A stretch of 64,000 bases of DNA from positions 43,017 to 107,016 of the forward strand of contig JAXMCS010000004.1 of NCBI GenBank assembly GCA_046349175.1, in the 5' to 3' direction. The notes beneath the pieces are model-generated. The model saw nothing but the letters and a program-made list of their open reading frames with translations, was not told where the DNA came from and made no database searches. The stretch is from Hyphomicrobiales bacterium. GTDB lineage: Bacteria > Pseudomonadota > Alphaproteobacteria > Rhizobiales > Aestuariivirgaceae. A program made the position numbers and the translations under genes. Numbering within the stretch: position 1 is the first letter of the stretch; each line of letters opens with the position of its first letter. Shown here one piece after another: positions 9,787 through 62,520 of this stretch.

Positions 9787-9883
9787 CACGCGAATCGCGC
9801 CGATTCCCCAAGGGTTTGTCAGGTCTTGTGAGCGTCATGTGAGGCCGCTATAAGCCGCCAACTTTTGGGTGAGAGACACGCAC

Positions 9884-10303: not shown

Positions 10304-11094
10304 ACCATCACCGAGCGGGCCTCGTCCAGCAAGGCCTCTGAGGTGGCACACAGCACATTGCCGCCAAGCGCCGGATTGTTGTCCGTCCAGCTGCCAACGG
10401 CCGCACCTGCGCCCCGCATGATCGGCACCAGGGCCGCGATGTCATAAATCTGCAGCACCGGGTCCATGGCAATGTCGAGACTGCCCGCCGCCAGAAGCGC
10501 GAAGGAATAGCAGTCGAGTCCGAAACGCGTGGTCTGCACCCGCTGCTGCAAGGCCGCAAAACCGGCACCATCCCGGTCCTTGTAAAGATGCGGGGCCGTT
10601 GTGCCCACCATGGCGGCGGCAAGCCCTGCCGTGGCCTTGACCCGAATCTGCCGTTCTTGGCCCGCATGGCGCTGGAAGCTGCCCGCCCCGGAGCCATAAT
10701 AAAGATCATCCACAAAGGGCTGATACATCACACCCAGAAGCGGCGTGTCACCATCATAGAGTGCAATCAGCGTGGCCCAGGTGGGCAGGCCGATCACAAA
10801 GGCCCGCGTGCCATCCACCGGATCGAGAATCCAGCGCAGGCCGGAGGTGCCCAGGGTGGTGCCAAACTCCTCGCCGAGGATGCCATGGCTGGGGTGATGC
10901 TTCTCGATCAGGTGGCGGATGGCCCGCTCGCCCGCCCGGTCGCCCTCGGTCACCGGGTCCCAGTGTTCGCCGGGCTTGATGTCAATCGGGGTGTTCTGGC
11001 GAAAATGCGGGAGGATGGCCCGGCCAGCCGCTTCGGCGAGCGTCAGGGCAAAGCGGGTGAGGTCCGCAAGGTTGGATGCAGGGGTGTGGGTCAT
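10288..11094 (-). CDS. Inositol monophosphatase family protein (HisN/SuhB-like)
   Basis: DPVTEGD, GEE, WILDPVDGT, YDIAALVP motifs. Confidence 0.88.
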   Translation of the reverse strand: MTHTPASNLADLTRFALTLAEAAGRAILPHFRQNTPIDIKPGEHWDPVTEGDRAGERAIRHLIEKHHPSHGILGEEFGTTLGTSGLRWILDPVDGTRAFVIGLPTWATLIALYDGDTPLLGVMYQPFVDDLYYGSGAGSFQRHAGQERQIRVKATAGLAAAMVGTTAPHLYKDRDGAGFAALQQRVQTTRFGLDCYSFALLAAGSLDIAMDPVLQIYDIAALVPIMRGAGAAVGSWTDNNPALGGNVLCATSEALLDEARSVMVQSSR

Positions 11095-28854: not shown

Positions 28855-29601
28855 TCAGCTCGCCGCCGCCGTTGGCCCGAAGGCCGCCTTCAAATCCGCT
28901 TCAGCGGCATTGAGCAGCGTCTGCATGGCGGAAGCCGCCGCCTTGGCATCACCCTTGGACACGAGGTTGAAAATGCGCAGATGCGATTCATAGGAATCGA
29001 TCAGGCTGTGGCCGCGAAGCTTCTGGCCGCGGCGGCTGGCTGAGAAAGCCTCCACCAATGGTGCCATCATGCCTTCAAACAAATAGATCAGCACGCGGTT
29101 GCCACCGGCCAGGGCAAGCGCCTCGTGAAAGCCCACATCGGCGCGGTGGAAGCGCATCTCTTCTTTGAGCGGATCGTCAGCCGCTTCATAGCCTTCGGCA
29201 ATCTCTTTCATTTGCGATAGGGCAACCCCAACCGCCACAAGGCCGGAGCGGCTGGCGCTCTTCGCGGCTAGGATCACCGACTGGATTTCGAGGCTGCGCC
29301 GCACCTCCACCAGATCAAACAGGCAGCGGGGATCAGACTTGATGAGCGAGGTAAGAAACTCGCCATAGGTCGAGCCATCGGGATGGCGCACCTCGGCCCG
29401 GCGACCACGTTGCACCTGGACAAGCCCCCGGCCCGCCAGAATTTTCAGGGCTTCGCGGATGGTGACGCGGCTCACCTCATGGGCCGCCGCCAGTGCCGCT
29501 TCACTTTCCAGCTGCTCGCCGGGCTGCATGCCCTGGATGATGCGCTGGGCAATGGCTTCGGCAACCTGGCTGGTGGCCACCTGTTTGCCGACTTTGCTCA
29601 T
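28855..29601 (-). CDS. GntR/FadR family regulator
   Basis: PGEQLESE..LA....VSRVTIREALK; DVGFHEAL...GNR. Confidence 0.92.
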   Translation of the reverse strand: MSKVGKQVATSQVAEAIAQRIIQGMQPGEQLESEAALAAAHEVSRVTIREALKILAGRGLVQVQRGRRAEVRHPDGSTYGEFLTSLIKSDPRCLFDLVEVRRSLEIQSVILAAKSASRSGLVAVGVALSQMKEIAEGYEAADDPLKEEMRFHRADVGFHEALALAGGNRVLIYLFEGMMAPLVEAFSASRRGQKLRGHSLIDSYESHLRIFNLVSKGDAKAAASAMQTLLNAAEADLKAAFGPTAAAS

Positions 29602-46426: not shown

Positions 46427-47442
46427 GCGGCGGTTCCCCCGTCCGCAGGCACCTCGCCTGGTCCCATGGCCGGCTGGAGGTGCAATTGCAGGCCGGCATG
46501 TTGGGCCCGGTTCACTTTGTTCTTGCCGATGGCCGCGAAGTCAGTCCTTTGCAAGTGGCCCCCTGGCATAACGACCCGCAGCGCCTGGCCTTGCCAGTCA
46601 TTCTGCAAGGCCTGCGCGGGGAATGGCCCTGTGTTCCCTTTGGTGCGGATGCAGAGCGGCAGCTGCCGCCGGACTGGCAGCCGCAGGGGGAGAGCTGTGC
46701 CGGGGCCGATGTGCCCCATGGCTGGTCATCCAACAATGACTGGCACTGGCTGGACAGCGCGTCTGATGAGATCGCGCTCGCCTGCACCTATCCGGATGAT
46801 CACCCCATCGCGGAACTGCGCCGTCGCATCAGGCCAGTCGCCGGAAAACCCGCCGTCGCCATCACGCTGGAGGTGGGCCCGCGCCGGGATTGCCGCCTGC
46901 CCCTCGGCCTGCATCCCACCTTCCGGTTGCCGGAAGAGGTGGGCGCGGTGACGGTCGAACCCGGGCAGCATGGTAAGGTCTTCAGCTTTCCGGGCGATGT
47001 GGAACCGGGCGCCAGCCTGTTTCCCGCCGCTGCCGTGTTTGAAAACCTGGAGTCCGTCACGAAACGCAATGGCCAACTGGCCTATGCGGATCAGCTTCCC
47101 TTTGCGGACGACATTGAAGACCTGCTGCAGATCACTGGCAGTGCGGGAAGCTTGGCCTTGCACTACCGCAAGGAAGGCTTCCGCGCCCATGTGAGGTGGA
47201 ATGCCAAGGCCTTCCCGAGTGTGCTGCTGTGGTTCAGCAATCGCGGCCGCAAACACTATCCATGGAATGGCAGGCATCTCGCTTTGGGCGTGGAGCCGGT
47301 CTGCTCGGCCTTCGATCTGGGCCCGGCCATCTCCTGCGGGGCCAATCCCATCGCGCAATCGGGAACACCAACTGCCATGGCCTTCAAGGCCGGCCAAAGC
47401 GCGTTCTTCGATTTGGAAATCTCTGTCAGCCCCGCGGTTTGA
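46423..47442 (+). CDS. Galactose mutarotase / aldose 1-epimerase-like protein
   Basis: PHG, GLHPTF, GVEP motifs; ATGA-coupled to the lactonase gene. Confidence 0.65.
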   Translation: MSGGSPVRRHLAWSHGRLEVQLQAGMLGPVHFVLADGREVSPLQVAPWHNDPQRLALPVILQGLRGEWPCVPFGADAERQLPPDWQPQGESCAGADVPHGWSSNNDWHWLDSASDEIALACTYPDDHPIAELRRRIRPVAGKPAVAITLEVGPRRDCRLPLGLHPTFRLPEEVGAVTVEPGQHGKVFSFPGDVEPGASLFPAAAVFENLESVTKRNGQLAYADQLPFADDIEDLLQITGSAGSLALHYRKEGFRAHVRWNAKAFPSVLLWFSNRGRKHYPWNGRHLALGVEPVCSAFDLGPAISCGANPIAQSGTPTAMAFKAGQSAFFDLEISVSPAV

Positions 47443-47566
47443 CGGCGCCCTGCATTTCGCATGACGCTTCTTCGCAGGCGGTTCGTTGTGGCGTGCCGGG
47501 CAGGGGATTCAGAAATCCAGCCATGACGCCCGAAGATCATTGCACTTGGGGGAGGGGTCCTATAAT

Positions 47567-47579
47567 ACTAATATAACAG
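47567..47579. promoter_or_regulatory. GntR-type operator, copy 1
   Basis: ACTAATATAACAG just after TATAAT; one mismatch to copies 2 and 3. Confidence 0.65.
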
Positions 47580-47590
47580 GAGTGCCCCAC

Positions 47591-49125
47591 GTGACCACCT
47601 CCCATCACACCTCCCCCGCCCGTTCGCCGATGCTGCGGCTTCACGCGTCAGACAATGTTGTTGTTGCGACGCGGATTGTGGAGAAGGGGGAGGGGGTTGA
47701 GGGTGTTGTGGCGGGGTCCCGCATTCCGCGCGGCCACAAGATGGCGGCGGTGGCGATTGCGCCGGGGGAGGCGGTGCGCAAGTTCGGCCAGATCATCGGC
47801 TTCGCCAAGGGGGCCATTCAGCCGGGCGACTGGGTGCACGAGCACAATGTCGTCATGGGCGAACTCTCGCACGACTATGGCTTTGGCCGCGAGGCGAAGC
47901 AGGAGCCCTGCTGCCGGAACAGGAGCGCGCCACCTTTGAGGGCTACCGCCGCAAGAACGGCAAGGTCGGCACCCGCAACTATATCGGCATCATGACCTCG
48001 GTGAACTGCTCGGCCACGGTCGCTGCCCACATCGCCCGCGAGGTGGAGCGCCAGGGCCTGCTCGACCCCTATCCCAATATTGATGGGGTGATTGCGCTCA
48101 CCCAGGACAATGGCTGCGTCATCGACTATCGCGGCGTCATCTTCGACACCTTCAAGCGCACCGCCTGGGGCTATGCCACCAACCCCAACATGGGCGGCGT
48201 GATGATGGTGGGCTGGGCTGCGAGGGCTTCCAGATCCCGCGCTTCAAGGAGGCCTACAAGGTGGAGGAGAACGAGCTGTTCCGCACCATGACCATCCAGG
48301 AGACGGGCGGCACGCGCAAGACGGTGGAGAAGGGCGTCGCCTATGTGAAGGAGATGCTGGCCGCCGTGAACGACGTGAAGCGCGAGACCTGCCGGGCGTC
48401 TGACCTTGTGGTGGCCCTGCAATGCGGCGGCTCCGATGGCTATTCCGGCATCACCGCCAATCCGGCCTTGGGGGCGGCGGTTGACCTTCTGGTGCAGCAT
48501 GGCGGCACGGCCATCCTGTCGGAGACGCCGGAGATCTATGGGGCGGAACATCTCCTCACCTGCCGCGCCGCCACCAAGGAGGTGGGCGAGAAGCTGGTGG
48601 GCATCATCAAGTGGTGGAGGACTATACCCGCCGCAACAACATGGAGATGAACAACAACCCTCTCCCGGCAACAAGCTGGGGGCCTCACCACCATCCTGGA
48701 GAAGTCGCTGGGGGCGGCGGCCAAGGGCGGCACCACCACCCTGCAGGCGGTTTACAACTATGCCGAACCGGTGACGGCCAAGGGCTTCGTCTTCATGGAT
48801 ACACCGGGCTATGATCCGGTTGGGGCCACAGGCCAGGTGGCAGGGGCGCCAATGTCATGTGCTTCACCACGGGCCGGGCTCTGCCTATGGCAACAAGCCC
48901 TGCCCCTCCATCAAGCTCGCCACCAACACGCCCATCTACACCCAGATGATCGAGGACATGGACATCAACTGCGGCGATGTGGTGGAGGGGTGCCGCTGGC
49001 CGGAGCGGGCAAACAGATCTTCGACCTCATCCTCAAGACGGCCTCCGGCCAGAAGACCAAATCCGAAGCCCTGGGCTATGGCGAGAATGAATACGTCCCC
49101 CTGGTACATCGGCGCCGTCATGTAA
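47591..49125 (+). pseudogene. uxaA: UxaA/GarD-family (altronate-type) dehydratase with multiple frameshifts (likely sequencing errors)
   Basis: SAF domain GHK..KFGQ.IG..HEHN, GTRNY, SVNCSA, QCGGSD..SG.TANP, SETPE, FMDTPGYD scattered over three frames. Confidence 0.85.
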
Positions 49126-49143
49126 GGGGCGGGCGTGCCCGGC

Positions 49144-49846
49144 TCATTTCCGCGCCTTGGCCGGAGGCTCATCCCCTTGCCGGTCCAAAAGCCGCACGGC
49201 ATTTGAATAGGCCTTGTCGAGATGCTCTCGGCCATGGTGAGGCGCGCCTGCTCCGGGTCGCCGCTGTTGAGTGAACGGATGATCTTGCGGTGCTGGTCCA
49301 GCGTGGCCTCGGCTTCGCCGGGGTGCGGCAAGGCCAGGTGGCGGCAGCGGTCCAACTGGGCCTTGGAAATTTCAATGGCCCGCCACAGCCGGTGTAGGTT
49401 GATCTCGGCGATATAGCGGTGAAACTCATCGTCCGTGGCGATGGCCCGGACATAGTCCTTGGCGTCGATAAAGCGGCCGTGCCGCAGCAGCAGGTCTGAC
49501 AGGTTGTCGGCGTGAAGCTGCGTCATATGGGCAACCGCCTGGGCCGCGCTTTCCATTTCAAGGGCGCGGCGCACCACATAGGCCTGGCGCACTCCTCGCG
49601 GTCCAAGGGGGCCGCCCGCGTGCCGGACTGCGCCACCACTTCAACCAGGTGTTCGTCGCTCAGCTTCTTGACCGCTTCACGCACCGGCGTGCGCGACACC
49701 TTGAGCGCGGAGGCGATGTTCTTCTCGTCAATAACGCCACCCGGCGGAATCGTTCCCGTGACGATCTCCGCGCGCAGAAGATCATAGATTTGATCCCGCA
49801 TGGAGCGCCGCCGGTCCAGCCGGGCTTTAGGAAATCTGCTTGTCAT
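49144..49846 (-). pseudogene. GntR family regulator, frameshifted (likely errors)
   Basis: VSRTPVREA HTH; FCD DDEFH and HRKII in other frames; C-terminus EHLDKAY...ARK*. Confidence 0.82.
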
Positions 49847-49866
49847 AATGTGAAGTCGCTTCTGTC

Positions 49867-49881
49867 ACACTAATATATCAG
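49867..49881. promoter_or_regulatory. GntR-type operator, copy 2
   Basis: ACACTAATATATCAG, near-palindromic, in the divergent promoter of the gntR gene and the ABC operon. Confidence 0.72.
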
Positions 49882-49941
49882 TCTGGACAAGCAATCGGCT
49901 TTGTGCGTTAATGCCAAAAAACAAGCAGGCGGGAGAGCGTC

Positions 49942-50986
49942 GTGGCAGAGAAGAATAATTTTCGAAATTGCATAATGCGATGTGGCCCGGATTGGTTGGC
50001 AAAGGCCTGATTCTGAGCCGGGCATCGCGCTTGATACCCTCATCGACCTCACGGCAAAAGCCGAAGTTGACGGCGTGAAGTTTGACGGTATCGACATTTT
50101 TCACGTTGCCCCCCACACCAACATTGATTTCACTGATGATGAAGTAAAGCAACTGGCGGACAAGGTGCGCCGCCGCAACCTCAACATCGGTTCGATCGTG
50201 GCACCGGTCTGGCCGTTGGTGGGGGCGGTCCGCCATGGGGTCAACCGTTGACCGCAAGAAGTTCGTGGCCAATGTCGAGAAGTCCTGCAAGCTGGGCAAG
50301 CGCCTGCGTGACCTGGGCGTGCGCCACTACGGCGTGGTGCGCATTGATTCGGCCGTGGGTCCCGGCGAATGGGCCAAGGACCCTGCGGGCAACACCAAGA
50401 AGATTGCCAAGACTTTCCGCGAAGCCTGCAGCGTCGCCGCCGACTATGGCGAGCGCCTCGCCGCTGAAGGTGAAATCTGCTGGGGGGCATGCATTCCTGG
50501 AAGGACATGATCAACACGCTGGAGGAAACCGACCGGCCGCAGACCATCGGCTTCCAGGCGGACATGGCCCATACCCTGCTTTATACCATGGGTTACAACG
50601 CGCCGAAATCGCGCCTGCTGCCAGCCAAGTTTGATTGGAAGAGCAAATCCAAGCTGGACGAAGCACTGAAGAAAATGACCGATGCGCTTCGCCCCTGGAC
50701 CATTGATTTCCATGTGGCCCAGAATGACGGCACCGTGAAAGGCCTTGGCTATCACGACAAGACCGGCAAGCACTGCATGGTCACCGATCCCAAGGGCAAG
50801 CTCGATATTCCCAAGCACGCCGGTTACTGGTTGCGGGACGGCAATGGCGAACTGACCAAGGCCTTCCGCCACATCTGCTGGGATGGCTGCATGTTCCCCA
50901 ACGACACCATGCTGCAGCAGAAAACCTGGAACGATGTCCTCGCCGCCATGATCAAGGTGCGCGACAAGCATGGCTGGGTGGCGTGA
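49942..50986 (+). pseudogene. Xylose-isomerase-like TIM barrel (sugar isomerase/epimerase), frameshifted (likely errors)
   Basis: NNF[P]KLHNAMWPGLVGKG[P][20 protein letters not shown][G][27 protein letters not shown]. Confidence 0.82.
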
Positions 50987-52125
50987 TGGCGAAGAAACCG
51001 CTCAACATCGGCATGGTGGGCTATGGCTTCATGGGCCGCGCCCACTCCAACGCCTTCGCCCAGGCCGGCCATTTCTTTGACTTGCCCTACCAGCCCGTTC
51101 TGAAAGCAGCCGCAGCCCGCGATGCCGGCAAGCTCAAGGCCTTTGCCGATCAATGGGGCTATCAATCCACCGAGACAGATTGGCGCAAGCTGATTGACCG
51201 CAAGGACATTGATCTCATCGACATAGCCGCGCCCAACGACATGCACATGGAAATTGCCTTGGCGGCCGCTGCCGCAGGCAAAATGGTGATGTGCGAAAAG
51301 CCGCTGGGCCGCAACGCTGCCGAGAGCCGCACGATGGTGGAGGCTGTGGCCAAGGCCAAGGTGCCCAACATGGTGTGGTACAACTACCGCCGCATTCCCG
51401 CCGTGACGCTGGCCAAGCAGCTCATTGACGAAGGCCGCCTTGGCAAGATCTTCCATTACCGCGCCAAGTTCCTGCAGGACTGGACCATTTCGGCGGACCT
51501 GCCGCAAGGCGGGCAGGGCCTGTGGCGGCTGGATGTGGGCGTGGCCGGATCCGGTGTGACCGGCGATTTGCTGGCCCACTGCATCGACACCTCACTCTGG
51601 CTCAATGGTGCCATCACCAGCGTTGTTGGCCTCACCGAAACCTTCATCAAGGAACGCCACCACAATCTCACCGGCAAGACCGAGAAGGTGGGCATCGATG
51701 ACGCGAGCCTCTTCCTGGCGCGCTACGCAAACGGCTCACTCGGCAATTTCGAAGCCACGCGCTATGCGCGCGGCCACAAGGCACTTTACACACTGGAGAT
51801 CAATGGCGAGAAGGCTTCCATTTTCTGGGACCTGCACGACCTGCACCGCCTGCAATATTTCGATCACCGCGACGAAGGCCGCACCCGCGGCTGGCGCTCC
51901 ATCCATGTGACGGATGGCGACCACCCCTACATGGGCAAGTGGTGGGTGCCCGGTCTGCAGATCGGATACGAGCACTCCTTCATCCATCAGGCCGCTGATT
52001 TCATTCAGGGCCTCGACAGCAAGACACCCGCCGCCCCCACCTTCAAGGATGCTTTGGCCACCGATCTGGTGACCGATGCCGTTCTCAAGTCAGCGGCCAG
52101 CCGCAGCTGGGAGACCGTGACCTAG
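50986..52125 (+). CDS. Gfo/Idh/MocA oxidoreductase
   Basis: GYGFMG, CEKP, YNYRR, WRL, GDLLAH. Confidence 0.92.
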
Positions 52126-52218
52126 GGGATGCACACAAGACACCCTCCGCCGGAACACCCCGGCGACGGATGTAAGACGAACGTCTAGCGACAAAGGTTC
52201 ACAAAGGGAGGAACATCA

Positions 52219-53544
52219 ATGTTAAGGCGTCATTTCTTGCTTACCACGGCCAGTGCCGCGCTGGCCCTGACCAGCACAATGACCTTGCCGGTCATGGCCG
52301 ACGACCAGGAACTCAATATTTTCTGGGCGGAATGGGATCCCGCAAACTATCTGCAGGAACTGGTCAACGATTTCACAGCCGAAACCGGAATCAAGGTGAC
52401 GGTGTCCACCACACCCTGGTCCGACTTCCAGACCAAGGCCTTCACTGAACTCAATGCCAAGGGCGACTCCTATGACATGATCATCGGTGACTCCCAGTGG
52501 CTGGGCGTGGGCTCCGAGCAGGGCCATTGGGTCGACCTCACCGACTTCTTCACCAAGCACGACCTGAAGAACAAGTTCCTGGAAGCCACCGTCAAGGGCT
52601 ATGCCGAATATCCTGCGGCCAGCGGCAAGTATTGGGCCATTCCGCTGGAAGGCGACGTGAACGGCTGGGCCTACCGCAAGGATTGGTTCGAGGATCCCAA
52701 GGAAATGGCGGCCTTCAAGGCCAAGTATGGCTATGACCTTGGCGTGCCGAAGGACCAGAGCCAGCTGCGCGACATCGCCGAGTTCTTCAACCGTCCGGAT
52801 GAAAAGCGCTACGGCGTGGCGCTCTACACCGACAACTCCTACGACGCCATGGCCATGGGCGTGGAACAGACCATCTTCACCTCGGGTGGCAGCCTGGGTG
52901 ACTATGCCACCTACAAGGTGGACGGCCTTGTGAACTCCAAGGAATCAGTGGCTGGCCTGCAGGCCTACCATGACCTGTTCAAGTTCACGCCTCCGGGCTG
53001 GAACAAGGCCTTCTTCGCCGAAAACAACCAGGCCATCACCGAAGGCCTGGCGGCCATGTCGATGAACTACTTCGCCTTCTTCCCTGCCTTGGCCAACCCC
53101 AAGACCAACCCGCATGCGGCGGCCACTGGCTTCTTCGCCAACCCGCCGGGCGTGAATGGTGCCAAGTTTGCCGCCTTGGGCGGGCAGGGCGTCTCCGTCG
53201 TGTCCTATTCCAAGAAGCAGGACCTGGCGATGAAGTTCCTGGAGTGGTTCGTGAAGGACGAAACCCAGAAGCGCTGGGCCGAACTGGGTGGCTATACCTG
53301 CTCGAAGGCGGTGCTGACTTCGCCCGAGTTCCTGAAGGCCACGCCTTACAACCAGGCCTTCTATGACTCGATGAGCATCGTCCGCGACTTCTGGGCCACG
53401 CCCGAATATGCCGAACTGCTCGACCAGTTGAACAAGCGCATCTATCCCTTCGTCATCAGTGACCAGGGCACCGCCCAGGAAGCGCTGGATGGCGTCGTGA
53501 AGGATTGGACGGCGACCTTCAACAAGTACAACCGCTACAAGTAA
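52219..53544 (+). CDS. Carbohydrate ABC (CUT1) substrate-binding protein
   Basis: GGAGG RBS, signal peptide, WAEWDP, YRKDWF, LGGQG. Confidence 0.9.
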   Translation: MLRRHFLLTTASAALALTSTMTLPVMADDQELNIFWAEWDPANYLQELVNDFTAETGIKVTVSTTPWSDFQTKAFTELNAKGDSYDMIIGDSQWLGVGSEQGHWVDLTDFFTKHDLKNKFLEATVKGYAEYPAASGKYWAIPLEGDVNGWAYRKDWFEDPKEMAAFKAKYGYDLGVPKDQSQLRDIAEFFNRPDEKRYGVALYTDNSYDAMAMGVEQTIFTSGGSLGDYATYKVDGLVNSKESVAGLQAYHDLFKFTPPGWNKAFFAENNQAITEGLAAMSMNYFAFFPALANPKTNPHAAATGFFANPPGVNGAKFAALGGQGVSVVSYSKKQDLAMKFLEWFVKDETQKRWAELGGYTCSKAVLTSPEFLKATPYNQAFYDSMSIVRDFWATPEYAELLDQLNKRIYPFVISDQGTAQEALDGVVKDWTATFNKYNRYK

Positions 53545-53616
53545 CATCTGCCTGCGGGCCGGGGCACGCCAATTGCCCCGGCCCGCATCTCAGGCGCGCA
53601 TGAACGGAGAATACGA

Positions 53617-54522
53617 TTGAGCACTGCGACATCCCCCATGTCACCCGATGCCAAGCGCTCAGTAAACCGGGGCATCAGTGATCTGGCTTTGCGGAATCTC
53701 TTCATCATTCCGACTGTGGCCTTCCTGATCATCTTCAACATTTTCCCGCTGATCTATTCCCTCGGCTATTCCTTCACGGATTTTGCCGCGAACCAGAACC
53801 GGCCCTGGTCCTTCGTGGGGCTTCAGAACTACCGTGACCTTTTGGCCGATGAGCAGGTCTGGTCCAACTTCATCATCACCGCGAAATATGTGATCATTTC
53901 TGTCACGGGGCAGATGCTCGTGGGCTTCGGCATGGCCATGCTGCTCAACCGCACCTTCGCCTACAAGGGCTTCGTCACCACGCTTCTGCTCTTGCCCATG
54001 ATGATGTCGGCAGCTGTTGTCGGCCTGTTCTGGCAGCTGCTCTATTCACCCAGCTGGGGCCCCATCAACTACATCGTCGGCCTTGGCGACTTTGGCCTGC
54101 TCGCCAATGCTGACACCGCGCTTTATGCCGTGGCCATCACCGACATCTGGATGTGGTCGCCCTTCGTGATGCTGCTGTCCCTCGCCGGGCTTTCAGCGGT
54201 GCCCAAACATCTCTACGAGGCCGCCGCCATCGACCGCGCCAGCAGCTGGTACACCTTCACACGCATCACCCTGCCGCTCGTTTCGCCGCTGCTTCTGATC
54301 GCGCTCATTTTCCGCACCATGGAAGCCTTCAAGACCTTCGATCTGGCCTATGTGCTGAGCGTGCAGCCTACAACGGAACTCATCTCCATCAAGCTTTACA
54401 GGCTGGCCTTCCAGCAGTGGGACACGGGGCGCTCCTGCGCGCTCGCCTACATCGTGCTGATCATGGTGCTCGCCATCACCAACATCTACGTCAAATACCT
54501 CAACAAAGTGAAGGAGCGCTGA
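53617..54522 (+). CDS. CUT1 permease (MalF-like)
   Basis: FVGLQNY, DIWMWSPF, YEAAAIDRA. Confidence 0.92.
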   Translation: MSTATSPMSPDAKRSVNRGISDLALRNLFIIPTVAFLIIFNIFPLIYSLGYSFTDFAANQNRPWSFVGLQNYRDLLADEQVWSNFIITAKYVIISVTGQMLVGFGMAMLLNRTFAYKGFVTTLLLLPMMMSAAVVGLFWQLLYSPSWGPINYIVGLGDFGLLANADTALYAVAITDIWMWSPFVMLLSLAGLSAVPKHLYEAAAIDRASSWYTFTRITLPLVSPLLLIALIFRTMEAFKTFDLAYVLSVQPTTELISIKLYRLAFQQWDTGRSCALAYIVLIMVLAITNIYVKYLNKVKER

Positions 54523-54525
54523 GCC

Positions 54526-55482
54526 ATGGGCATGGTCCGTCCTGCCAGCCACGCCGCCTTCAACCGCATCGCCATCGCGGCGGTGCTGGTGCTGACGATT
54601 GTCTTCCTGTCGCCGATCTACTGGATTGCCTCCACCTCCTTCAAGGCGCGCTCAGTGGCCACCTCGGTGCCACCCACGGTGTTTTTCACGCCGCAGATCA
54701 CGCCCTATGTGAAGCTTTTCACCAAGCGCGTGCAACTGACGGCGGACGTGGACCCGGCAAAATACGAGGCCGCTCCCTGGTGGGAAAAACTTGTCTATGA
54801 TGGTGGCGAGCGTGTGCTGCGCACCGGCACAACGCCGCAGCTTTCGCCCTATCCCAGCCGCTTTCAAAACAGCCTCATCGTGGCCATCACCAGCACGTTG
54901 CTGGCGGTGGGCCTTGGCACCTTCACGGCCTATGGTTTCTCGCGGTTCAAGATGAAGGGCGAGGATGATCTCCTGTTCTTCATTCTCTCCACCCGCATGT
55001 TGCCACCTGTCGTGGTGGCAATCCCCATGTTCCTCATGTACCGGGCCGCGGGTCTCACCGACACGCACATTGGCCTCATCATCATGTATGTGGCTTTCAA
55101 CCTGTCCTTCTCGGTGTGGCTGATGAAGGGCTTCATGGATGAAATCCCCAAGGAATATGAAGAAGCGGCCCTGGTGGACGGCTACACGCGGCTGCAAGCC
55201 TTCTTCAAGATCGTGCTGCCGGAGGCCGCAACAGGCATCGCCGCCACGGCCGTGTTCTGCTTCATCACGGCCTGGAACGAATATGCCTTCGCCCTCATCC
55301 TCACCAGCCGCAACGCGCAAACAGCGCCTCCCTTCATTCCGGCCCAGGTGGGATCCGGCCTCATCGACTGGACGACGATTGCCGCAGGCTCCGTGCTGTT
55401 CCTGCTGCCAGTGGCACTCTTCACCTTCCTGCTCCGCAACCATCTGCTGCGCGGCGTGACCTTTGGAGCCATCCGCAAATGA
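54526..55482 (+). CDS. CUT1 permease (MalG-like)
   Basis: NSLIVA, EEAALVDG, AWNEY. Confidence 0.92.
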   Translation: MGMVRPASHAAFNRIAIAAVLVLTIVFLSPIYWIASTSFKARSVATSVPPTVFFTPQITPYVKLFTKRVQLTADVDPAKYEAAPWWEKLVYDGGERVLRTGTTPQLSPYPSRFQNSLIVAITSTLLAVGLGTFTAYGFSRFKMKGEDDLLFFILSTRMLPPVVVAIPMFLMYRAAGLTDTHIGLIIMYVAFNLSFSVWLMKGFMDEIPKEYEEAALVDGYTRLQAFFKIVLPEAATGIAATAVFCFITAWNEYAFALILTSRNAQTAPPFIPAQVGSGLIDWTTIAAGSVLFLLPVALFTFLLRNHLLRGVTFGAIRK

Positions 55483-55685
55483 GCAATTCCTCTCAGAGCT
55501 TTGGCGGGATCAGCGTCAAATATCTCGAACCCGCCTCCATCTGGATCATGGTGCTGGGCATCATCGCGCTGTGCCAGCCTTTCAGCATGGCGCTGCATCA
55601 ATACGGCGTCACCATCGTGCTCATTGGATTGATCGGCTTCAACATCTTCTCGAAGATCAAGCCGCCCGTGCAGGGCGACAGGTAA
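55479..55685 (+). CDS. Small two-TM membrane protein inside the ABC operon
   Basis: 68 aa, two hydrophobic segments, ATGA overlap with the permease stop, 5 nt before the ATPase start. Confidence 0.75.
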   Translation: MSNSSQSFGGISVKYLEPASIWIMVLGIIALCQPFSMALHQYGVTIVLIGLIGFNIFSKIKPPVQGDR

Positions 55686-55690
55686 GTTTC

Positions 55691-56821
55691 ATGGCTGAGA
55701 TTGTTCTGCGCGACATCGAGAAGTATTTCGGCGATGTCTATGTTATCCGGAAACTGAACCTCACCATCAAGCAGGGTGAGTTTGTGGTGCTGCTCGGGCC
55801 CTCGGGCTGCGGCAAGACCACGACGCTGCGCGCCATTGCGGGGCTTGAGGATATCACCTCGGGTGACATCCTGATTGATGGCAAGCCCGTGCAGGATCTG
55901 GAGCCCGGCCACCGCGACATCGCTTTCGTCTTCCAGCTCTTTGCGCTCTATCCGCACCTCACCGCCCATGACAACATCGCGTTCCCGCTGCGGGCCACGC
56001 GCGAGCGCCCGGAAGACGTGGCGGCCAAGGTGGCGGCGGTCGCCAAGTCCCTGCAGATCGAGCATCTCCTCTCCAAGCGGCCCTCGGCACTCTCCGGTGG
56101 TGACATGCAGCGCGTGGCCATTGGCCGGGCCCTGGTGCGCCGCCCAAAGGCCATGCTGATGGACGAGCCGATCGGCGCGCTGGATGCCAAGCTGCGCGAG
56201 GAGATGCGCGTGGAACTGAAGCGCCTGCATGTGGAGAACAATTCCACCACCGTCTATGTCACCCATGACCAGGTTGAGGCCATGGCGCTTGCCGACCGCG
56301 TGGCGATCATGAACGAAGGCGTGCTGCAACAGGTGGGCACACCGGACGAGGTTTACAACAATCCGGCCAATCTCTTTGTGGCACAATTCGTGGGCAGCCC
56401 GGTGATGAACATCACGCCGGCGCGCCTGTTGGCGGGCAAGGGCAAGGCCACGTTGGCGGTTGGTGCCGACAAGGCGGGCTTTGATGTACCGGCTGATTTC
56501 CTGCGTCAGATTGAGCAGGCGGGCGGAGATCCGGCCAATGTCATTCTGGGTATCCGGCCAGAGGGTCTGATCGTCAGTCAATCAGGCAGCAAGGACAAAG
56601 GCGGCCTTGCCGCCACCGTGCAATTGATCGAGCCTTTGGGCTCCCATGACATCGTTGATCTTGATTTCGGCGGCACAGTGTTGCGGGCCCGCACCGCCAG
56701 TGGCCGTCTCGGCAAGCTCGGAGAGAAGGTTACAGTTGCGCTGGATCCAGGCCACGTCCGCTTCTTTGAACCGCGAACCGGCAACTCTTTTCAGGTGAAG
56801 TACGGCCATGGCGCAAATTGA
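55691..56821 (+). CDS. CUT1 ABC ATPase 1
   Basis: GPSGCGKTT, LSGGDMQR, MDEP, VTHDQ. Confidence 0.93.
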   Translation: MAEIVLRDIEKYFGDVYVIRKLNLTIKQGEFVVLLGPSGCGKTTTLRAIAGLEDITSGDILIDGKPVQDLEPGHRDIAFVFQLFALYPHLTAHDNIAFPLRATRERPEDVAAKVAAVAKSLQIEHLLSKRPSALSGGDMQRVAIGRALVRRPKAMLMDEPIGALDAKLREEMRVELKRLHVENNSTTVYVTHDQVEAMALADRVAIMNEGVLQQVGTPDEVYNNPANLFVAQFVGSPVMNITPARLLAGKGKATLAVGADKAGFDVPADFLRQIEQAGGDPANVILGIRPEGLIVSQSGSKDKGGLAATVQLIEPLGSHDIVDLDFGGTVLRARTASGRLGKLGEKVTVALDPGHVRFFEPRTGNSFQVKYGHGAN

Positions 56822-57878
56822 ACTGAAGGATGTCACCAAGCGTTTTGGTGCGCATGCCGCGCTGGATGGCCTGTCGTTGCAGGTGGCCGATGGCGAGTTC
56901 TTCGTGCTGTTGGGGCCCACGGGCGCCGGCAAGACCACGGTTCTCCGCACCATCGCGGGGCTGGAGCAGCCCACCTCCGGCAGCGTCTGGATTGGCGGTG
57001 AGGATGTGATGAACCAGACCGCCGCCGAGCGCGATGTGGCCCTGGTGTTCCAGTATTACTCGCTCTATCCGCGCTACACGGTGCGGGACAATCTCGCCTT
57101 TCCTCTGCGCTCCAAGGTGCGGCAAATGCCTGAAAGCGAAATTGCCGCGCGCATCAGTTGGGCCGCCAAGACCTTGCGCATCGAGCACCTTCTGGACCGC
57201 AAGACCGACAGGCTGTCCGGCGGCGAAATGCAGCGCGTCTCAATCGGCCGCGCCATTGTGCGCGAGCCGCGCGCCTTCCTGATGGATGAGCCGCTCTCCA
57301 ATCTGGATGCAAAGCTGCGCGAGGCCCTGCGTGGTGAATTGAAGAACCTGCAGAAGCGCCTCAAATCCACTTTCCTCTTCGTCACCCATGACCAGATCGA
57401 GGCGCTCTCCATGGGTGACCGCATCGGCGTCATGCAGAACGGCAGCATCATGCAGGTGGGCATGCCCCATGAAATCTATGGCCGGCCCAACAGCATGTTC
57501 GTGGCGAGTTTTGTGGGAACGCCATCCATGAGCTTCATCCCCGCCGAAGTCGCGGGCGGCGTCGTGACAGCTCTGGGCCGCAAGCTTTCCGTGCCGCTGG
57601 CCAAAGGTGTGGCCAATGGCAAGGCCCATGTCGGCCTGCGCGCCGAGGATGTGCTGATCGGGCCCAAGCTGCCACACAGCGGGGTCATCCACGAGGTTGA
57701 GAATTTCGGTGTGGAGAAGATCGTCACGCTGCGCAGCGGTGATCACTTCATTCGCGCCGCAGTTCCGGCGGCCACGGCAACGCCGCTGGGCGGCCCGGTG
57801 ACATTTGACATGAAGCCCGGCAAAATCCATTGCTTCGACGCCGCAAGCGGACGGCGCATCAACGCAGAAGGACAGTGA
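56808..57878 (+). CDS. CUT1 ABC ATPase 2
   Basis: GPTGAGKTT, LSGGEMQR, MDEPLSNLD, VTHDQ. Confidence 0.93.
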   Translation: MAQIELKDVTKRFGAHAALDGLSLQVADGEFFVLLGPTGAGKTTVLRTIAGLEQPTSGSVWIGGEDVMNQTAAERDVALVFQYYSLYPRYTVRDNLAFPLRSKVRQMPESEIAARISWAAKTLRIEHLLDRKTDRLSGGEMQRVSIGRAIVREPRAFLMDEPLSNLDAKLREALRGELKNLQKRLKSTFLFVTHDQIEALSMGDRIGVMQNGSIMQVGMPHEIYGRPNSMFVASFVGTPSMSFIPAEVAGGVVTALGRKLSVPLAKGVANGKAHVGLRAEDVLIGPKLPHSGVIHEVENFGVEKIVTLRSGDHFIRAAVPAATATPLGGPVTFDMKPGKIHCFDAASGRRINAEGQ

Positions 57879-57880
57879 CG

Positions 57881-58573
57881 ATGAGGTTTGCGGGCCGCAG
57901 GGCCGTGGTGACAGGCGGCCTCTCCGGGATTGGCGAAGCCGTGCTCAAGCGCATCATCGCGGAAGGCGGCAAGGCCGTGGCTTGGGATGTGAATGGCGGC
58001 ATCAAGACCGACATTTCCGATCTTGCTTCGGTGGAAAAGGCCGTGGCCGAAACCGTGAAGCAGCTGGGCGGCATCGACATTCTCGTCAACAGCGCGGGCA
58101 TCACCGGCCCCACCGTGCCGGTGGATGGCTTTCCCATTGATGGCTGGCTCAAGACCATGGCCGTCAATGTGAACGGCACGTTCTTCACAAACCGCGCCGT
58201 GCTGCCGCTGATGATCGCGCAGAACTATGGCCGCATCGTCAATATTGCCTCCATTGCCGGCAAGGAAGGCAACCCCAATGCCTCGGCCTATTCGGCTTCG
58301 AAGGCGGCGGTCATCGGTTTCACCAAGTCACTGTCCAAGGAAGTGGCGAAATACAACATCACCGCAAACTCCGTCACACCCGCCGCGGTGCGCACGGCGA
58401 TCTTTGACCAGATGCCGCAAAGCCATATTGATTTCATGCTCTCCAAGATCCCGAAAGGCCGCTTCGGAACCGTGGAGGAAAATGCCGCCCTCATCTGCTT
58501 CCTCGCATCAGAGGAATGCTCTTTCTCCACCGGAGCCGTCTTCGACATTTCGGGTGGCCGCGCCACCTATTGA
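57881..58573 (+). CDS. SDR resembling 2-keto-3-deoxy-L-rhamnonate 4-dehydrogenase (LRA5-type)
   Basis: SAGITG.T.PV, ASIAGKEGNPNASAYSASK, KIP.GR, SEECSF, SGGRATY recalled as typical of this subgroup. Confidence 0.75.
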   Translation: MRFAGRRAVVTGGLSGIGEAVLKRIIAEGGKAVAWDVNGGIKTDISDLASVEKAVAETVKQLGGIDILVNSAGITGPTVPVDGFPIDGWLKTMAVNVNGTFFTNRAVLPLMIAQNYGRIVNIASIAGKEGNPNASAYSASKAAVIGFTKSLSKEVAKYNITANSVTPAAVRTAIFDQMPQSHIDFMLSKIPKGRFGTVEENAALICFLASEECSFSTGAVFDISGGRATY

Positions 58574-59500
58574 TCAGGCCTTGCGTTTCCGCGCCAGGGC
58601 TTCTGCTCCTGCAAAGCCACGCTGATAGACATTCTGTTCCGTACGCGGAATGAGAATGAGGTCGTCCTGCGCGCTGGCATCCCAGTCGCCGGTCCACACA
58701 CCGAAAGTGCTGCGGCTGGCCGTCACCGGCCACAGCCTGAAGCCCGAGACATAGTTGATCCACGGTATCTCACACTGCGTGATGCGGTAGGAGAGCGAGT
58801 GGTCAAGATCGGAAAGATGCAGGAGCTGCTCGTTCAGATGCCCTTCGCCGAAATAGAAGTCACGCGTTGCGGAAACCTTGTCGGAGCGTTCGCGCTTCAG
58901 CATGTGCATTTTGGTGATGTCGCTGTGCCAAGCGCCCATGCCTGCAAAATCGCGCATGATGCCCCAAATGGACTCGAGCGGCGCCTTGATGTGACGGGAG
59001 GTCCACACCTTGTTGGGCTGGCCACCCGTCCAGCGGGTTGATGGATCCGCCTCGTTGGGCTTTGCCTTGGCAACGATGCGCGCCAGATTGGCGAAGTTGG
59101 CGGCAAACACGTCCTTGGAGATGATGCGCTCATATTTGCCCTCATCGCCCGGGCCCTCATCGAATGTGGCTGTCCATTCCGCGAAGGTTTCATTGCTGTG
59201 GGTGACAGGATAAAGCCGTAGTGTCGCCAGATAATTGCGCACCGGGAAGGCGGGCTTTTCGAAATTGTAGGTGAAGGTCCAGTTGGCATCATCGAGCGTC
59301 AGCAGCCGCTCGCGGATATGCTCGCCATCACGGGTGTGGAACGAGCGCACACAGCCCACCACATCGGCTGCCAGCCCGCCCTCGATCTTTGACCGCGCGA
59401 TGGAAGGTGCCCAGGAGGGCAGGCCGTTGAAATCCCGCACATGGTCCCAGACGGTTTCGACGGGGGCTTTCAGGATGATGGATGCATAGGCACGGGCCAT
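58574..59500 (-). CDS. Tandem SRPBCC (polyketide cyclase / MxaD-like) domain protein
   Basis: Internal duplication: IKAPVETVW..VRDFNGL..W versus IKAPLESIW..MRDFAGM..W, each followed by E.LL.L.D and LYPVT/LWPVT. Confidence 0.85.
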   Translation of the reverse strand: MARAYASIILKAPVETVWDHVRDFNGLPSWAPSIARSKIEGGLAADVVGCVRSFHTRDGEHIRERLLTLDDANWTFTYNFEKPAFPVRNYLATLRLYPVTHSNETFAEWTATFDEGPGDEGKYERIISKDVFAANFANLARIVAKAKPNEADPSTRWTGGQPNKVWTSRHIKAPLESIWGIMRDFAGMGAWHSDITKMHMLKRERSDKVSATRDFYFGEGHLNEQLLHLSDLDHSLSYRITQCEIPWINYVSGFRLWPVTASRSTFGVWTGDWDASAQDDLILIPRTEQNVYQRGFAGAEALARKRKA

Positions 59501-59509
59501 GGTGTTTCC

Positions 59510-60340
59510 TCAAAACGTGATTCGCTTGAAGGCGCGGGTCTGTTCCGTGAGCGCTGTTTCAACGGGCAGGCGCTCCATGGAGCTGGCGCCATAGAAGCCA
59601 TTGATGCCCGGCGTGTGGGCCAGCACATATTGCGCATCGGCGGGCGATGAAATGGGCCCGCCATGGCACAGCACAATCACATCCTTGCGCACCTTGCGGG
59701 CGGCCTCGGCCCAGCCCGCGATCAGCGCCGGGCAGTCCTTCAGCTTGACGGCGGTTTCGGCCCCGATGCTGCCGCCCGTGGTCAGCCCCATATGGGCCAC
59801 AATGATGTCGGCCCCCGCGGCCGTCATGGCTGAGGCTTCATCGGCGTTGAAGACATAGGGCGTGGTGAGCATGTCCTTGGCATGGGCCTTGGCGATGAGA
59901 TCAACCTCCAGCCCATAGCTCATGCCGGTTTCCTCCAGGTTCTGCCGCAACACGCCATCGATCAGGCCAACCGTGGGAAAGTTCTGGATGCCAGAAAAGC
60001 CCATGGCCTTGAGGTCGTCGAGAAAGTGATCCACCAGCAGGAAAGGGTCCGTGCCATTCACCCCGGCCAGCACAGGGGTTTTTTGCACCACGGGCAGCAC
60101 CTCGCGGGCCATGTCCTTCACGATCTCATTGGCGTTTCCATAGGCCAGAATGCCCGCCAGCGAACCGCGCCCCGCCATGCGGTAGCGGCCCGAGTTGTAA
60201 ATGACGATCAAGTCAATGCCACCCGCTTCCTCGCATTTGGCGGAAAGGCCGGTGCCCGCCCCGCCGCCAATGATCGGCTCCTTGCGGGCGATCATGGCCC
60301 GGAATTTTTCGAGCAGCTGTTGGCGTTCAAAGCGGGGCAT
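59510..60340 (-). CDS. PEP-hydrolase-like / TIM-barrel signal transduction family protein
   Basis: [65 protein letters not shown]. Confidence 0.9.
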
Positions 60341-61535
60341 GGGCACTCTCTCTCATCTCGCGGAAGGCCTGCAGGGCGGCCTGTGCAAAGGCTGCTTCGT
60401 TGATGTGGGCGTCAATTTCCAGAAGCTTGCGGCGGGGATCGGCATTCCAGCCCTTGCGGATCGCTGCAAACAGGGCGGCATCCGCAGCAGGATCATGGAA
60501 GGCCTGGCCTTCCGCATCCAGGGCGGAAACGCCTTTCAGCGGCAGCAGAAAACGAACGGGCCCGGCCATCCGGTTCAGGCGCTCCACAATGAACTGGCCG
60601 ATGGCCGTGTTCTCTTCGGGCGTGGTGCGCATCAGGGTGACTTGCGCATTGTGCACATGGAAATGCCGTTGGGAAAATCGGGCGGGAACCGTTTCGCGCG
60701 GACCAAAGTTCACCATGTCGCAGGCCCCCACGGAACCCACATAGGGAATGGCGTGGCGCTGAAAGCAGCCAAAACGGTCCGCCGTGCAGGGCAGCACTCC
60801 GCCAAACAGATAATCCGCCACTTCCGTTGTGGTCACGTCAAACACGCCGGAAAACAGCCCGCTATCCGCCAGTTTTTCAAAGCACTGTCCGCCCGTGCCC
60901 GTGGCGTGAAAGACAAAGCATTCGTGGTCAGCCTCCAGGGCCTGCCGCAATTGGGTGACGAGAGGCGTGGTGACGCCGAACATTGTGAAGCCAAGGGCGG
61001 GCAGGGTGGCCCCTTGTGTGGCTTTCAGGTTCAAGGCCATGCCAGCGGCGGCATGGGCGGCATTGGCAATCACCTTGCGGGTGATGGCATTGAGCCCCGC
61101 AATGTCCGCCACCGAATGCATGAGCGCAATATCTGTGGGGCCGACGTAAGGGGCCACCTGGCCAGAGGCCATGGTAGAGAGCATCAACTTAGGCAGGCCC
61201 ACCGGCAGGCTGCGCATCGCTTCGGTGACAAGCGCCGTGTTGCCGCCACCACCCAGGCCCAGAACCGCGCCGATATCCTTGCGCGTGGCGAGGAAAACAC
61301 CAAGCGCCTCGGCCATGGCGCTGATCGCCTGACCCCGGTCCTTCAGGCCGAGAACAGCCGCGGCACCTTTGGGGTGATGTTCAGCCACCTGCGCTGCCGG
61401 CACATCCGCGGGCCCCGTGCCGACCGTTGAGACATCAATCAACACAGCCTCGGCACCGGCCTCTTTGACGCAGGCGCAGGCATAGGCGAGCTCCGGGCCC
61501 TTGGTGTCACATGTGCCGACGACGTAAACCTTCAC
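60327..61535 (-). CDS. Tm-1-like ATP-binding domain protein (UPF0261)
   Basis: [60 protein letters not shown]; GTGA-coupled start. Confidence 0.9.
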
Positions 61536-62380
61536 CGCGCGCGGGCCCACCCCTGTTTCATGTTCAGGATGCCTTTCTTCCACACCTCGTCGCGGTTGGG
61601 GAAGAAGTCGCGCCACACGCGGGTGGCCGCCGCCAGGGCAGGCATGGCGCGGCCAAAGGCCTCGATGGTCATGGTGCCATCATACTTCGCAGCCTTCAGA
61701 GCCTTGTAGGTGGCGGCAAGCGGCGTGTGGCCCTTGCCGGGCGTGCCGCGGTCATTCTCCGAGATGTGCACATGGATCAGATGGCGGCGGATGGTCTTGA
61801 TGGCACCGACAGGGTCCTTTTCCTCGATATTGGCATGGAACGTGTCGTACATCGCCTTGATCGCCGGATGATCCACCTCGTCGAGGTAGTCCGCCAGCTG
61901 TTGCATGGTGTTGAGGAAATAGGTCTCGAAGCGGTTGAGCGCCTCAAGGGAAAGCCGCACGTTCTTTTTAGCCGCGTGGTCGCCAACCGCCCGGTGAAAG
62001 GAAAGGCCGCGCTTGCGCTCGGCCGGCGTGGGGCCTGAACCGGTGAAGAAGCCAAGCTCTGAATGCATGGGTCCACCCAGAATGGGAGCGCCGAGCGCGG
62101 CATTGCAATCCACCACCCACTTGGCCCAGTCGCGCGCTGCGTTGCGCGTGGCAGCATCCGCCGCAAGCGGATGCTTGCCCTGCACCATCACGCTGACCGT
62201 GCTGCGCTCCAGCCCGATCTTGTCGAGTAATTCGCCGAGCCGCGCGTAATGTTCCGGGCTGCCCTCGAAGATCGGGATTTCCACGCTGTCATAGCCAGCC
62301 TTCTTCAGCGCGCGCATGACGGGGGCATGATCCTCCGTCACATGGGCTGTCCACAAAAGCATGTTGAAGCCGAATTTCAT
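61532..62380 (-). CDS. D-tagatose/D-psicose 3-epimerase family protein
   Basis: EALNRFE, DTFH.NIEE, HVHISENDRG.PG.G, IEAF. Confidence 0.88.
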   Translation of the reverse strand: MKFGFNMLLWTAHVTEDHAPVMRALKKAGYDSVEIPIFEGSPEHYARLGELLDKIGLERSTVSVMVQGKHPLAADAATRNAARDWAKWVVDCNAALGAPILGGPMHSELGFFTGSGPTPAERKRGLSFHRAVGDHAAKKNVRLSLEALNRFETYFLNTMQQLADYLDEVDHPAIKAMYDTFHANIEEKDPVGAIKTIRRHLIHVHISENDRGTPGKGHTPLAATYKALKAAKYDGTMTIEAFGRAMPALAAATRVWRDFFPNRDEVWKKGILNMKQGWARAR

Positions 62381-62453
62381 GTGTCCTCCCCGCAGTGTGG
62401 TCCACCGCGCTGCCCGTTCCAGCCCAACCTCCCGAAGCGGGCACAGGGTTGAT

Positions 62454-62468
62454 ACACTAATATATCAG
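62454..62468. promoter_or_regulatory. GntR-type operator, copy 3
   Basis: ACACTAATATATCAG, identical 15-mer to 49867-49881, upstream of the epimerase operon. Confidence 0.72.
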
Positions 62469-62520
62469 ATGCGGCTAGGGGGAGGGTCCTCCCAGTGGGC
62501 GAATCCTCGCATGGCCGACC

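Follow-up and report, generated by a model that had tools for sequence, protein, structure and literature searches.

A predicted GntR/FCD operator and a candidate sugar catabolic regulon around the UPF0261/PF09370 gene pair of Aestuariivirga

Levoglucosan catabolism by LgdA, LgdB1 and LgdB2 proceeds by oxidation of the sugar at C3 followed by elimination or hydration, and pairs a Gfo-type oxidoreductase with xylose-isomerase-fold enzymes (PMC7676230). MarK (Saro_1862, PDB 9MPY), a UPF0261 protein of Novosphingobium aromaticivorans, is an ATP-dependent kinase of acetovanillone-type aromatics (PMC12624787). UPF0261 proteins and TIM barrels of the PF09370 family are widespread in bacteria; the reaction is known for one member, MarK, and none is known for the pair. 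Here we analyse a 64,000-nucleotide stretch of a Hyphomicrobiales genome (GCA_046349175.1, contig JAXMCS010000004.1, positions 43,017 to 107,016), hereafter the window, in which this pair is encoded in a block at positions 47567-62468 together with sugar-type genes, an FCD-type GntR regulator and three copies of a near-palindromic motif.

The assembly is a metagenome-assembled genome (MAG) of the genus Aestuariivirga, 70% complete, 2.67 Mb in 50 contigs and 62% GC, and the comparison spans 101 genomes of the genus. The motif is very probably the operator of the adjacent FadR/FCD-subfamily GntR protein, which would place the UPF0261, PF09370 and SRPBCC genes in one sugar catabolic regulon; this reading rests on sequence comparison. 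A first-pass annotation of the window had likewise proposed that a single operator joins three transcription units, the UPF0261 operon among them, in a sugar-acid regulon. It had also described UPF0261 as lacking an established bacterial function, a statement that MarK makes outdated.

The palindrome and its conservation with gntR

A search of the window found ACTAATATAWCAG as exact copies at 47567-47579, 49869-49881 and 62456-62468, all on the plus strand and all intergenic. This confirms the near-palindrome reported at three promoter regions by the first-pass annotation, whose positions 49867 and 62454 are the starts of the 15-mer ACACTAATATATCAG that copies 2 and 3 indeed have in common. 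With up to two mismatches to ACTAATATAWCAG allowed, the window holds five matches against 0.16 expected, a number reached in none of 100 shuffled sequences. The genome-wide scan that the annotation had suggested returned only the three window copies at zero or one mismatch in the whole 2.67-Mb assembly. A relaxed form of the palindrome showed no excess elsewhere in the genome (three extra matches vs ten for a reversed-sequence control), and relaxed matches at C3:162108, C12:45003 and window position 2636 were rejected as sites because they lie inside long open frames and within the reversed-control rate. A mobile repeat of the repetitive extragenic palindrome or miniature inverted-repeat type was also rejected, given that each genome has one to four copies and that these invariably precede the same gene sets. 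A two-mismatch match, ACAAATAGATCAG, lies at 29079-29091 of the window, inside another sugar module.

The core of the site, an imperfect palindrome of 14 bp, is ACTG(W)TATA(W)CAGT and takes the form ACTAATATAWCAG(T) in the window genome. Read toward the controlled gene it is aaCTGTTATATCAGTt, with orientation and placement conserved in relatives. Operator copy 2 (49867..49882, plus strand; the 15-mer ACACTAATATATCAG plus T) is common to the divergent promoters of gntR and of an operon opened by an isomerase-like gene, Iso. Its distance to the gntR ATG (49846, minus strand) is 22 nt, and it precedes by 2 nt the TGGACA box of a predicted sigma-70 promoter at 49884..49912 on the plus strand (-35 TGGACA at 49884-49889, 17-nt spacer, -10 GTTAAT at 49907-49912), and the same operator/promoter layout is found in 13 relatives. 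This region carries a single site in the aaCTGTTATATCAGTt direction toward gntR, at 10-22 nt from the gntR ATG; on its other side the site ends 2-3 nt before a conserved TGGACA-17/18 nt-TATGAT-like promoter. Immediately 3' of a TATAAT box, copy 1 (ACTAATATAACAGG, 47567..47580, plus strand) overlaps the uxaA ribosome-binding site, AGGAG, which lies 8 nt before the GTG at 47591; an independent short-read contig covers its junction (47439-47649). At the uxaA genes of relatives, the site directly follows a TTGTTT-17 nt-TATTAA promoter. Copy 3 (62447..62469, plus strand) belongs to a 21-nt island, TTGATACACTAATATATCAGA, and is 76 nt upstream of the ATG of the epimerase-like gene (62380, minus strand) that opens the UPF0261 operon; in a sub-clade of relatives the site stands just before the ribosome-binding site of this operon. 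Such placement fits a repressor.

For the genus-wide scan we used the pattern ACTRATATAWCAG, with the same pattern read backwards as control. The motif occurs in 78 of 101 genomes, with about 124 matches against about 19 for the control. An orthologue of gntR is also present in 78: 75 genomes have both, 20 have neither, three have gntR only (one of these at a contig edge) and three have the motif only, counts that overstate independence because the compared genomes are relatives. In about 64 of 78 genomes the motif lies on the same contig 10-30 bp upstream of the gntR start, where it adjoins the -35 box of the divergent Iso/Gfo/ABC transporter operon. Despite the kinship of the genomes, the joint losses of motif and gntR are difficult to account for in another way.

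The palindrome also stands before the other units at unlinked loci, so that its conservation upstream of orthologues, which the first-pass annotation had made a test of its proposal, holds beyond the gntR neighbourhood. In 17 genomes, window included, it lies 10-60 bp upstream of uxaA. When the surroundings of 46 strict sites in relatives were surveyed, 43 had a sugar-type gene just downstream. Thirteen sites fell in the gntR/Iso-Gfo divergent region, eight before a CUT2 sugar ABC importer, seven before uxaA, six before the epimerase-UPF0261 operon (two further sites before this operon were found from the gene side), four before a short-chain dehydrogenase (SDR) gene, with an ABC ATPase gene next in three of them, and two before a major facilitator superfamily (MFS) transporter. 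Single sites preceded xylB-xylA, an FMN-dependent dehydrogenase and a DeoR regulator, and three had an ambiguous context. One genome (G077) carries the gntR/Iso, uxaA and epimerase-UPF0261 units at 1.29, 1.45 and 2.00 Mb of one contig, 160-700 kb apart and each with the palindrome; three others (G116, G007 and G019) have all three units with sites at separate loci, and G059 has sites at gntR/Iso and uxaA only. The phylogenetic footprints agree: alignment with G054, the closest relative at 80% DNA identity, shows diverged spacers that retain a 29-nt identical island at site 2 and the 21-nt island at site 3.

At the xylB-xylA site (locus L037, G015:C1, 2576-4049), the palindrome lies 10 bp upstream of genes that both score above the equivalog cut-offs for xylulokinase and xylose isomerase. 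The arrangement is a hint of a possible connection between the pathway and xylulose or xylose.

A full operator precedes the epimerase gene in the window and in G054, G069, G019, G020 (two mismatches), G077, G116, G007, G101, G056 and two further species. In six species (G023 and loci L045, L047, L051, L055 and L061), the epimerase-UPF0261 genes instead follow Iso-Gfo-(ABC)-SDR1 in the same direction and are presumably read from the operator-controlled promoter. UPF0261 and gntR orthologues also share a phyletic pattern (both in 74 genomes, neither in 17, one only in 4 and 6, two of the six being 42-43% paralogues). Since this pattern is independent of the motif, the functional link is well supported, and direct operator control would be a lineage feature. 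Together with the conserved motif and its co-occurrence with gntR, the fusion to Gfo/ABC/SDR genes supports the proposed placement of the UPF0261 operon within a regulon for a sugar or sugar acid.

In many species, A. litoralis among them, the half-site TATATCAG alone is retained, 3 nt ahead of a TTGACA box, together with a divergent DJ-1/PfpI gene. The block CGTATATCAGGAATTGACAAG, conserved about 75-95 nt upstream of the epimerase start in L001, L042, L052, L057, L060, L070 and L074, retains of the operator only the right half, beside the -35 box, and represents either a site in decay or a half-site that has a function of its own. The possibility that relatives encode a divergent regulator upstream of this operon was considered and rejected, as the gene there encodes the DJ-1/PfpI protein. 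In loci L036, L062 and L075, compared with L015, SRPBCC and a second SDR gene come directly after the epimerase gene, and UPF0261 and the PEP (phosphoenolpyruvate)-hydrolase-like PF09370 gene stand elsewhere without an operator (about 52% identity), so the four-gene operon is not indivisible.

Frameshifts, counter-evidence and alternative readings

At least eight one-base gaps, mostly in G or C runs, fall between 47900 and 50500 of the window and break uxaA, gntR and Iso, with the genes on both sides intact. A second copy of part of this segment lies on contig C1 (277381-279516; locus L121, 5382-7516) and comprises uxaA and the 3' two-thirds of gntR; over 2.1 kb it is 96.5% identical to window 47604-49733. 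This copy stops abruptly inside a penicillin-binding-protein-like gene; it reflects either a segmental duplication that is real or a chimeric join made in assembling the MAG. Between the two copies there are 14 gap openings, mostly single bases in G or C runs, and the same kind of gap separates the window Iso from that of G054; the gap in gntR near 49591 is seen against both the C1 copy and G054. Short-read contigs from wastewater and activated-sludge metagenomes have bases that are missing from the window, and a 1,343-nt contig over gntR shows 18 gaps relative to it. The window frameshifts are thus probably consensus errors of the MAG rather than decay.

Several observations weigh against a regulon of three co-regulated units, in addition to the kinship of the compared genomes. 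Were the frameshifts real, the repressor would be inactive and the regulon constitutive in the source organism. The uxaA copy behind site 1 is frameshifted, and the intact copy on C1 is without an operator, in the ancestral position beside a divergent Amidohydro_2 lactonase-like (fuconolactonase-like) gene, as in G077 (77% identity). Site 1 is oriented opposite to the operators at uxaA in relatives and matches the gntR-side site in sequence, and the nearest relative has no strict site at uxaA, which makes site 1 a separate, lineage-specific recruitment. Among about 35 close epimerase-UPF0261 loci sampled without bias, the full site was found at only 3-4 (about 10-15% of species); co-regulation of this operon is therefore lineage-restricted or achieved by operon fusion. 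Finally, the core ACTG(W)TATA(W)CAGT is without the GT-N-AC core typical of the FadR subfamily, whose operators we take to be of the type t.GT...AC.a with a GT...AC core. Operators of FadR/FCD-subfamily regulators do vary. The proposal of one operator joining three units is supported with a correction: the motif is conserved with gntR in relatives, but the full site at the epimerase operon and at uxaA belongs to a sub-clade and is not genus-wide.

The unusual core could mean that a regulator encoded elsewhere binds the palindrome and that its closeness to gntR is incidental, as might the three genomes in which the motif is present and gntR was not detected. These three are, however, MAGs of 74-96% completeness, and the position of the motif next to the gntR start in most genomes and its joint loss with gntR in 20 make this explanation improbable. 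Still less credible is the reading that the motif serves as part of a promoter (a -10 box or a UP-like sequence, for instance) in place of a protein operator. The TATA core can pass for a -10 hexamer and many epimerase promoters keep only the half-site beside TTGACA, but the motif is palindromic, is limited to one to four copies per genome, is lost together with gntR, and changes position relative to the promoter, upstream of -35 at the isomerase-like promoter and downstream of -10 at uxaA. Sites 1 and 3 might also be non-functional by-products of rearrangement, duplication or mis-assembly, in which case site 2 alone would work and the UPF0261 operon would not be co-regulated in this genome. 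The exact 15-mer common to sites 2 and 3, the reversed orientation of site 1 before a duplicated uxaA whose intact copy lies elsewhere, and the replacement of the usual DJ-1/PfpI neighbour by Ku-LigD beside site 3 would all suit such an origin. We nonetheless consider it unlikely, as the identical 21-nt island before the epimerase gene is retained at the same position in G054 between diverged flanks, G069 has the same two-site layout, independent short-read contigs cover sites 1 and 2, and relatives gained operators before the same two gene sets.

A dual role of the GntR protein keeps the operator assignment and has a small chance of being right. The protein would repress at gntR, uxaA and the epimerase operon, where the site follows the -10 box, and activate the isomerase-like/Gfo promoter from a site centred near -44.5, comparable to FadR at fabA. 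In 14 of 14 species the end of the operator is 2-3 nt upstream of the -35 hexamer, which is compatible with class-II-type activation; the same site, however, overlaps the gntR start region, and RNA polymerase could equally be blocked by a protein beside the -35 box. Most catabolic FCD regulators are, moreover, repressors.

Under repression by the adjacent GntR protein, which we favour, a GntR dimer would bind one operator serving the back-to-back promoters of gntR and of the isomerase-like/Gfo/ABC/SDR operon, with site 2 overlapping the likely gntR -10 box and adjoining the -35 box of the isomerase-like promoter. Further operators would act between the uxaA -10 box and ribosome-binding site and upstream of the epimerase-UPF0261-PEP-hydrolase-like-SRPBCC operon. 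Binding of an acidic sugar metabolite to the FCD domain would free the repressor, and the units would be induced together. The first steps would probably be a levoglucosan-dehydrogenase-like oxidation and then a TIM-barrel elimination or isomerisation, with a UxaA-type aldonate dehydration included.

Gene content of the block

The gene identities given by the first-pass annotation agree with Pfam and NCBIfam results. On the plus strand, a UxaA/GarD-family dehydratase gene with SAF, GD_AH_second and GD_AH_C domains (47591..49124) contains several one-base gaps; the galactarate dehydratase model gives an intact UxaA orthologue 409.6 bits against a cut-off of 730. The FCD-type GntR regulator gene (49150..49846, minus strand; 3' end approximate) has its winged helix-turn-helix (wHTH) and FCD parts in different frames, with the one-base gap near 49591. 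Its winged-helix domain (PF00392) scores 61.9 bits in the window piece 49523-49846 and 56.3 bits in the intact orthologue of G008, and the FCD effector domain (PF07729) 68.1 and 83.5 bits, respectively.

The divergent plus-strand operon begins with Iso, a xylose-isomerase-like TIM-barrel gene (49942..50986; GTG start at 49942) that encodes about 348 residues in relatives and has at least four one-base gaps in the window. Pfam searches of the window pieces, and sequence and profile searches of PDB, returned nothing for Iso, and a language-model atlas gave it only the label "sugar phosphate isomerase/epimerase". Its AlphaFold model (pLDDT 75) matched IolE, DgpB/C, ketose 3-epimerases, xylose isomerase and AtHYD about equally (TM 0.5-0.65), so that no specific reaction can be assigned. 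Iso is followed by a Gfo/Idh/MocA oxidoreductase gene (50983..52125, plus strand) whose closest family is levoglucosan dehydrogenase; with 329.5 bits on NCBIfam NF052479, below the equivalog cut-off of 650, the protein is nearest to that family and not a member of it. A CUT1-type ABC importer (52219..57878, plus strand) comprises a binding protein (52219-53544), two permeases (53617-54522 and 54526-55482) and two ATPases (55463-56821 and 56808-57878). The short-chain dehydrogenase gene SDR1 (57830..58573, plus strand) is the final gene of the operon. In relatives, genes for a 146-aa unassigned protein (L002, 9004-9444) and a PfkB-family kinase resembling IolC and tagatose kinases (9450-10394) lie between the ABC genes and SDR1; both are absent from the window operon.

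Convergent to this operon is a minus-strand operon of four genes. It opens with a ketose 3-epimerase-like TIM barrel of the xylose-isomerase fold (61532..62380) and continues with a UPF0261 protein of the Tm-1/MarK family (60327..61616 as the maximal frame; relatives align from about residue 28), a PEP-hydrolase-like TIM barrel of family PF09370 (59510..60346) that lies near Mll9387 (PDB 2P10, 402 bits), and a tandem two-domain SRPBCC (Polyketide_cyc2) protein (58574..59500). The UPF0261 protein scores 199.7 bits on PF06792, 288.9 bits on PF23189 and 577 bits on NCBIfam NF002673, passing the cut-off of 520.

Ku and LigD genes follow divergently. Site 3 also precedes the start of Ku, the first gene of the Ku-LigD operon (at about 62565), by about 97 nt, and in relatives a DJ-1/PfpI gene occupies that divergent position; a rearrangement may have placed Ku under, or next to, a sugar-responsive operator. 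Orthologues of the CUT2 binding protein and of DJ-1/PfpI, which are neighbours of the regulon in relatives, were not found in the 70%-complete assembly with the queries used.

Pathway chemistry and comparison with described systems

The predicted regulon, previously undescribed, is of an ordinary type, a putative GntR/FCD repressor with a palindromic operator. Its support comes from the operator itself, its loss and gain with the regulator, unlinked targets and operon fusions. Ordinary as gene regulation, its value lies in the context that it provides for an orphan enzyme pair, whose gene company it fixes as an LgdA-like oxidoreductase, xylose-isomerase-fold enzymes, a UxaA-type dehydratase and sugar importers. 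The inducer of the GntR protein is likely a pathway substrate or an acid intermediate; the operator offers a ready reporter, and cultured Aestuariivirga strains exist.

FCD domains usually sense carboxylates. Together with a UxaA-type dehydratase, an enzyme of sugar acids, this supports the "sugar-acid" label of the first-pass annotation. The core enzymes, with their levoglucosan-dehydrogenase-like Gfo protein and xylose-isomerase folds, look more like a 3-keto-sugar route than the classical uronate pathway. The annotation had further taken the CUT1 importer as a pointer to the sugar of the regulon, which its distribution does not bear out. Relatives have a CUT1 set of about 41% identity, no transporter, or an extra CUT2 or MFS transporter under the same operator; CUT1 is thus not a fixed partner, and the substrate can be judged less well from the binding protein at 52219 than was assumed.

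In its regulatory design the locus resembles the FadR/FCD repressors of acid-sugar regulons (UxuR/ExuR, DgoR, LldR and NanR), with which it has in common a GntR wHTH joined to an FCD domain, a palindrome at its own and at catabolic or transport promoters and, in this regulon, an acid-sugar dehydratase of the UxaA family. Unlike them, the window regulator reaches no NCBIfam equivalog (the best, phnR_burk, at 75 bits vs a cut-off of 271) and its predicted operator has an AT-rich core; a regulon that joins an LgdA-like dehydrogenase with UPF0261, PF09370 and SRPBCC proteins has not been described previously. In its enzymes, the locus parallels the levoglucosan pathway LgdA/LgdB1/LgdB2/LgdC (PMC7676230, PMC10066097) in combining a Gfo oxidoreductase, xylose-isomerase-fold TIM barrels and an ABC importer. 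It differs in that the Gfo protein falls below the 650-bit cut-off, Iso is without a PDB sequence relative and has a generic fold match only, and an LgdC-like second Gfo gene was not identified. UxaA, UPF0261, PF09370 and SRPBCC proteins, all present here, are not part of that pathway.

The window UPF0261 protein matches MarK over its full length at 210 bits. It carries the ATP-contacting lysine (in DTK), where MarK natively has a glutamate and acquires the lysine by the activating substitution E16K; GTCDTK of the window protein aligns with GTADTK of Tm-1 (K20) and with TQDTK of MarK E16K (position 16). Gly195, His219 (hydrogen-bonded to the phenolic oxygen) and His304 (stacking) of MarK are kept, whereas His348, Thr196, Phe283 and Ile285 are replaced by Leu, Val, Met and Asn, and these pocket replacements lead us to expect a different substrate. 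The comparison suggests a chemistry related to that of MarK on a different ligand. MarK acts alone as a homodimer, and the window gene has genes for a PF09370 barrel and an SRPBCC protein as partners in the predicted sugar regulon; literature searches by Pfam accessions and by "Tm-1-like" found no paper on the bacterial UPF0261/PF09370 pair.

One conceivable role for these genes, to which we give an outside chance by analogy with MarK, is an ATP-driven step of a 3-keto-sugar pathway. UPF0261 would phosphorylate the enolic hydroxyl of an enolone formed by the Gfo and TIM-barrel enzymes (2-hydroxy-3-keto-glucal type), the PEP-hydrolase-like barrel would process the resulting PEP-like enol phosphate, and the tandem SRPBCC protein would hold the planar intermediate. 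The idea derives from MarK, which phosphorylates a phenolic hydroxyl para to an acetyl carbonyl, taken here as analogous, and from conservation of the oxygen-contacting histidine. As a speculative variant, the kinase might act on a phenolic aglycone released from an aryl glycoside. If true, the enol-phosphate route would for the first time assign a physiological reaction to the bacterial halves of plant Tm-1.

Tomato Tm-1 and plant Tm-1-like proteins (PDB 3WRV-3WRY; PMC5028733) are the closest solved relatives of the window UPF0261 protein (306 bits). In the plant proteins UPF0261 is fused to the TIM-barrel family that here is encoded by the adjoining gene. The plant protein is one chain that confers virus resistance by protein binding, whereas the Aestuariivirga counterparts are two genes in a catabolic operon.

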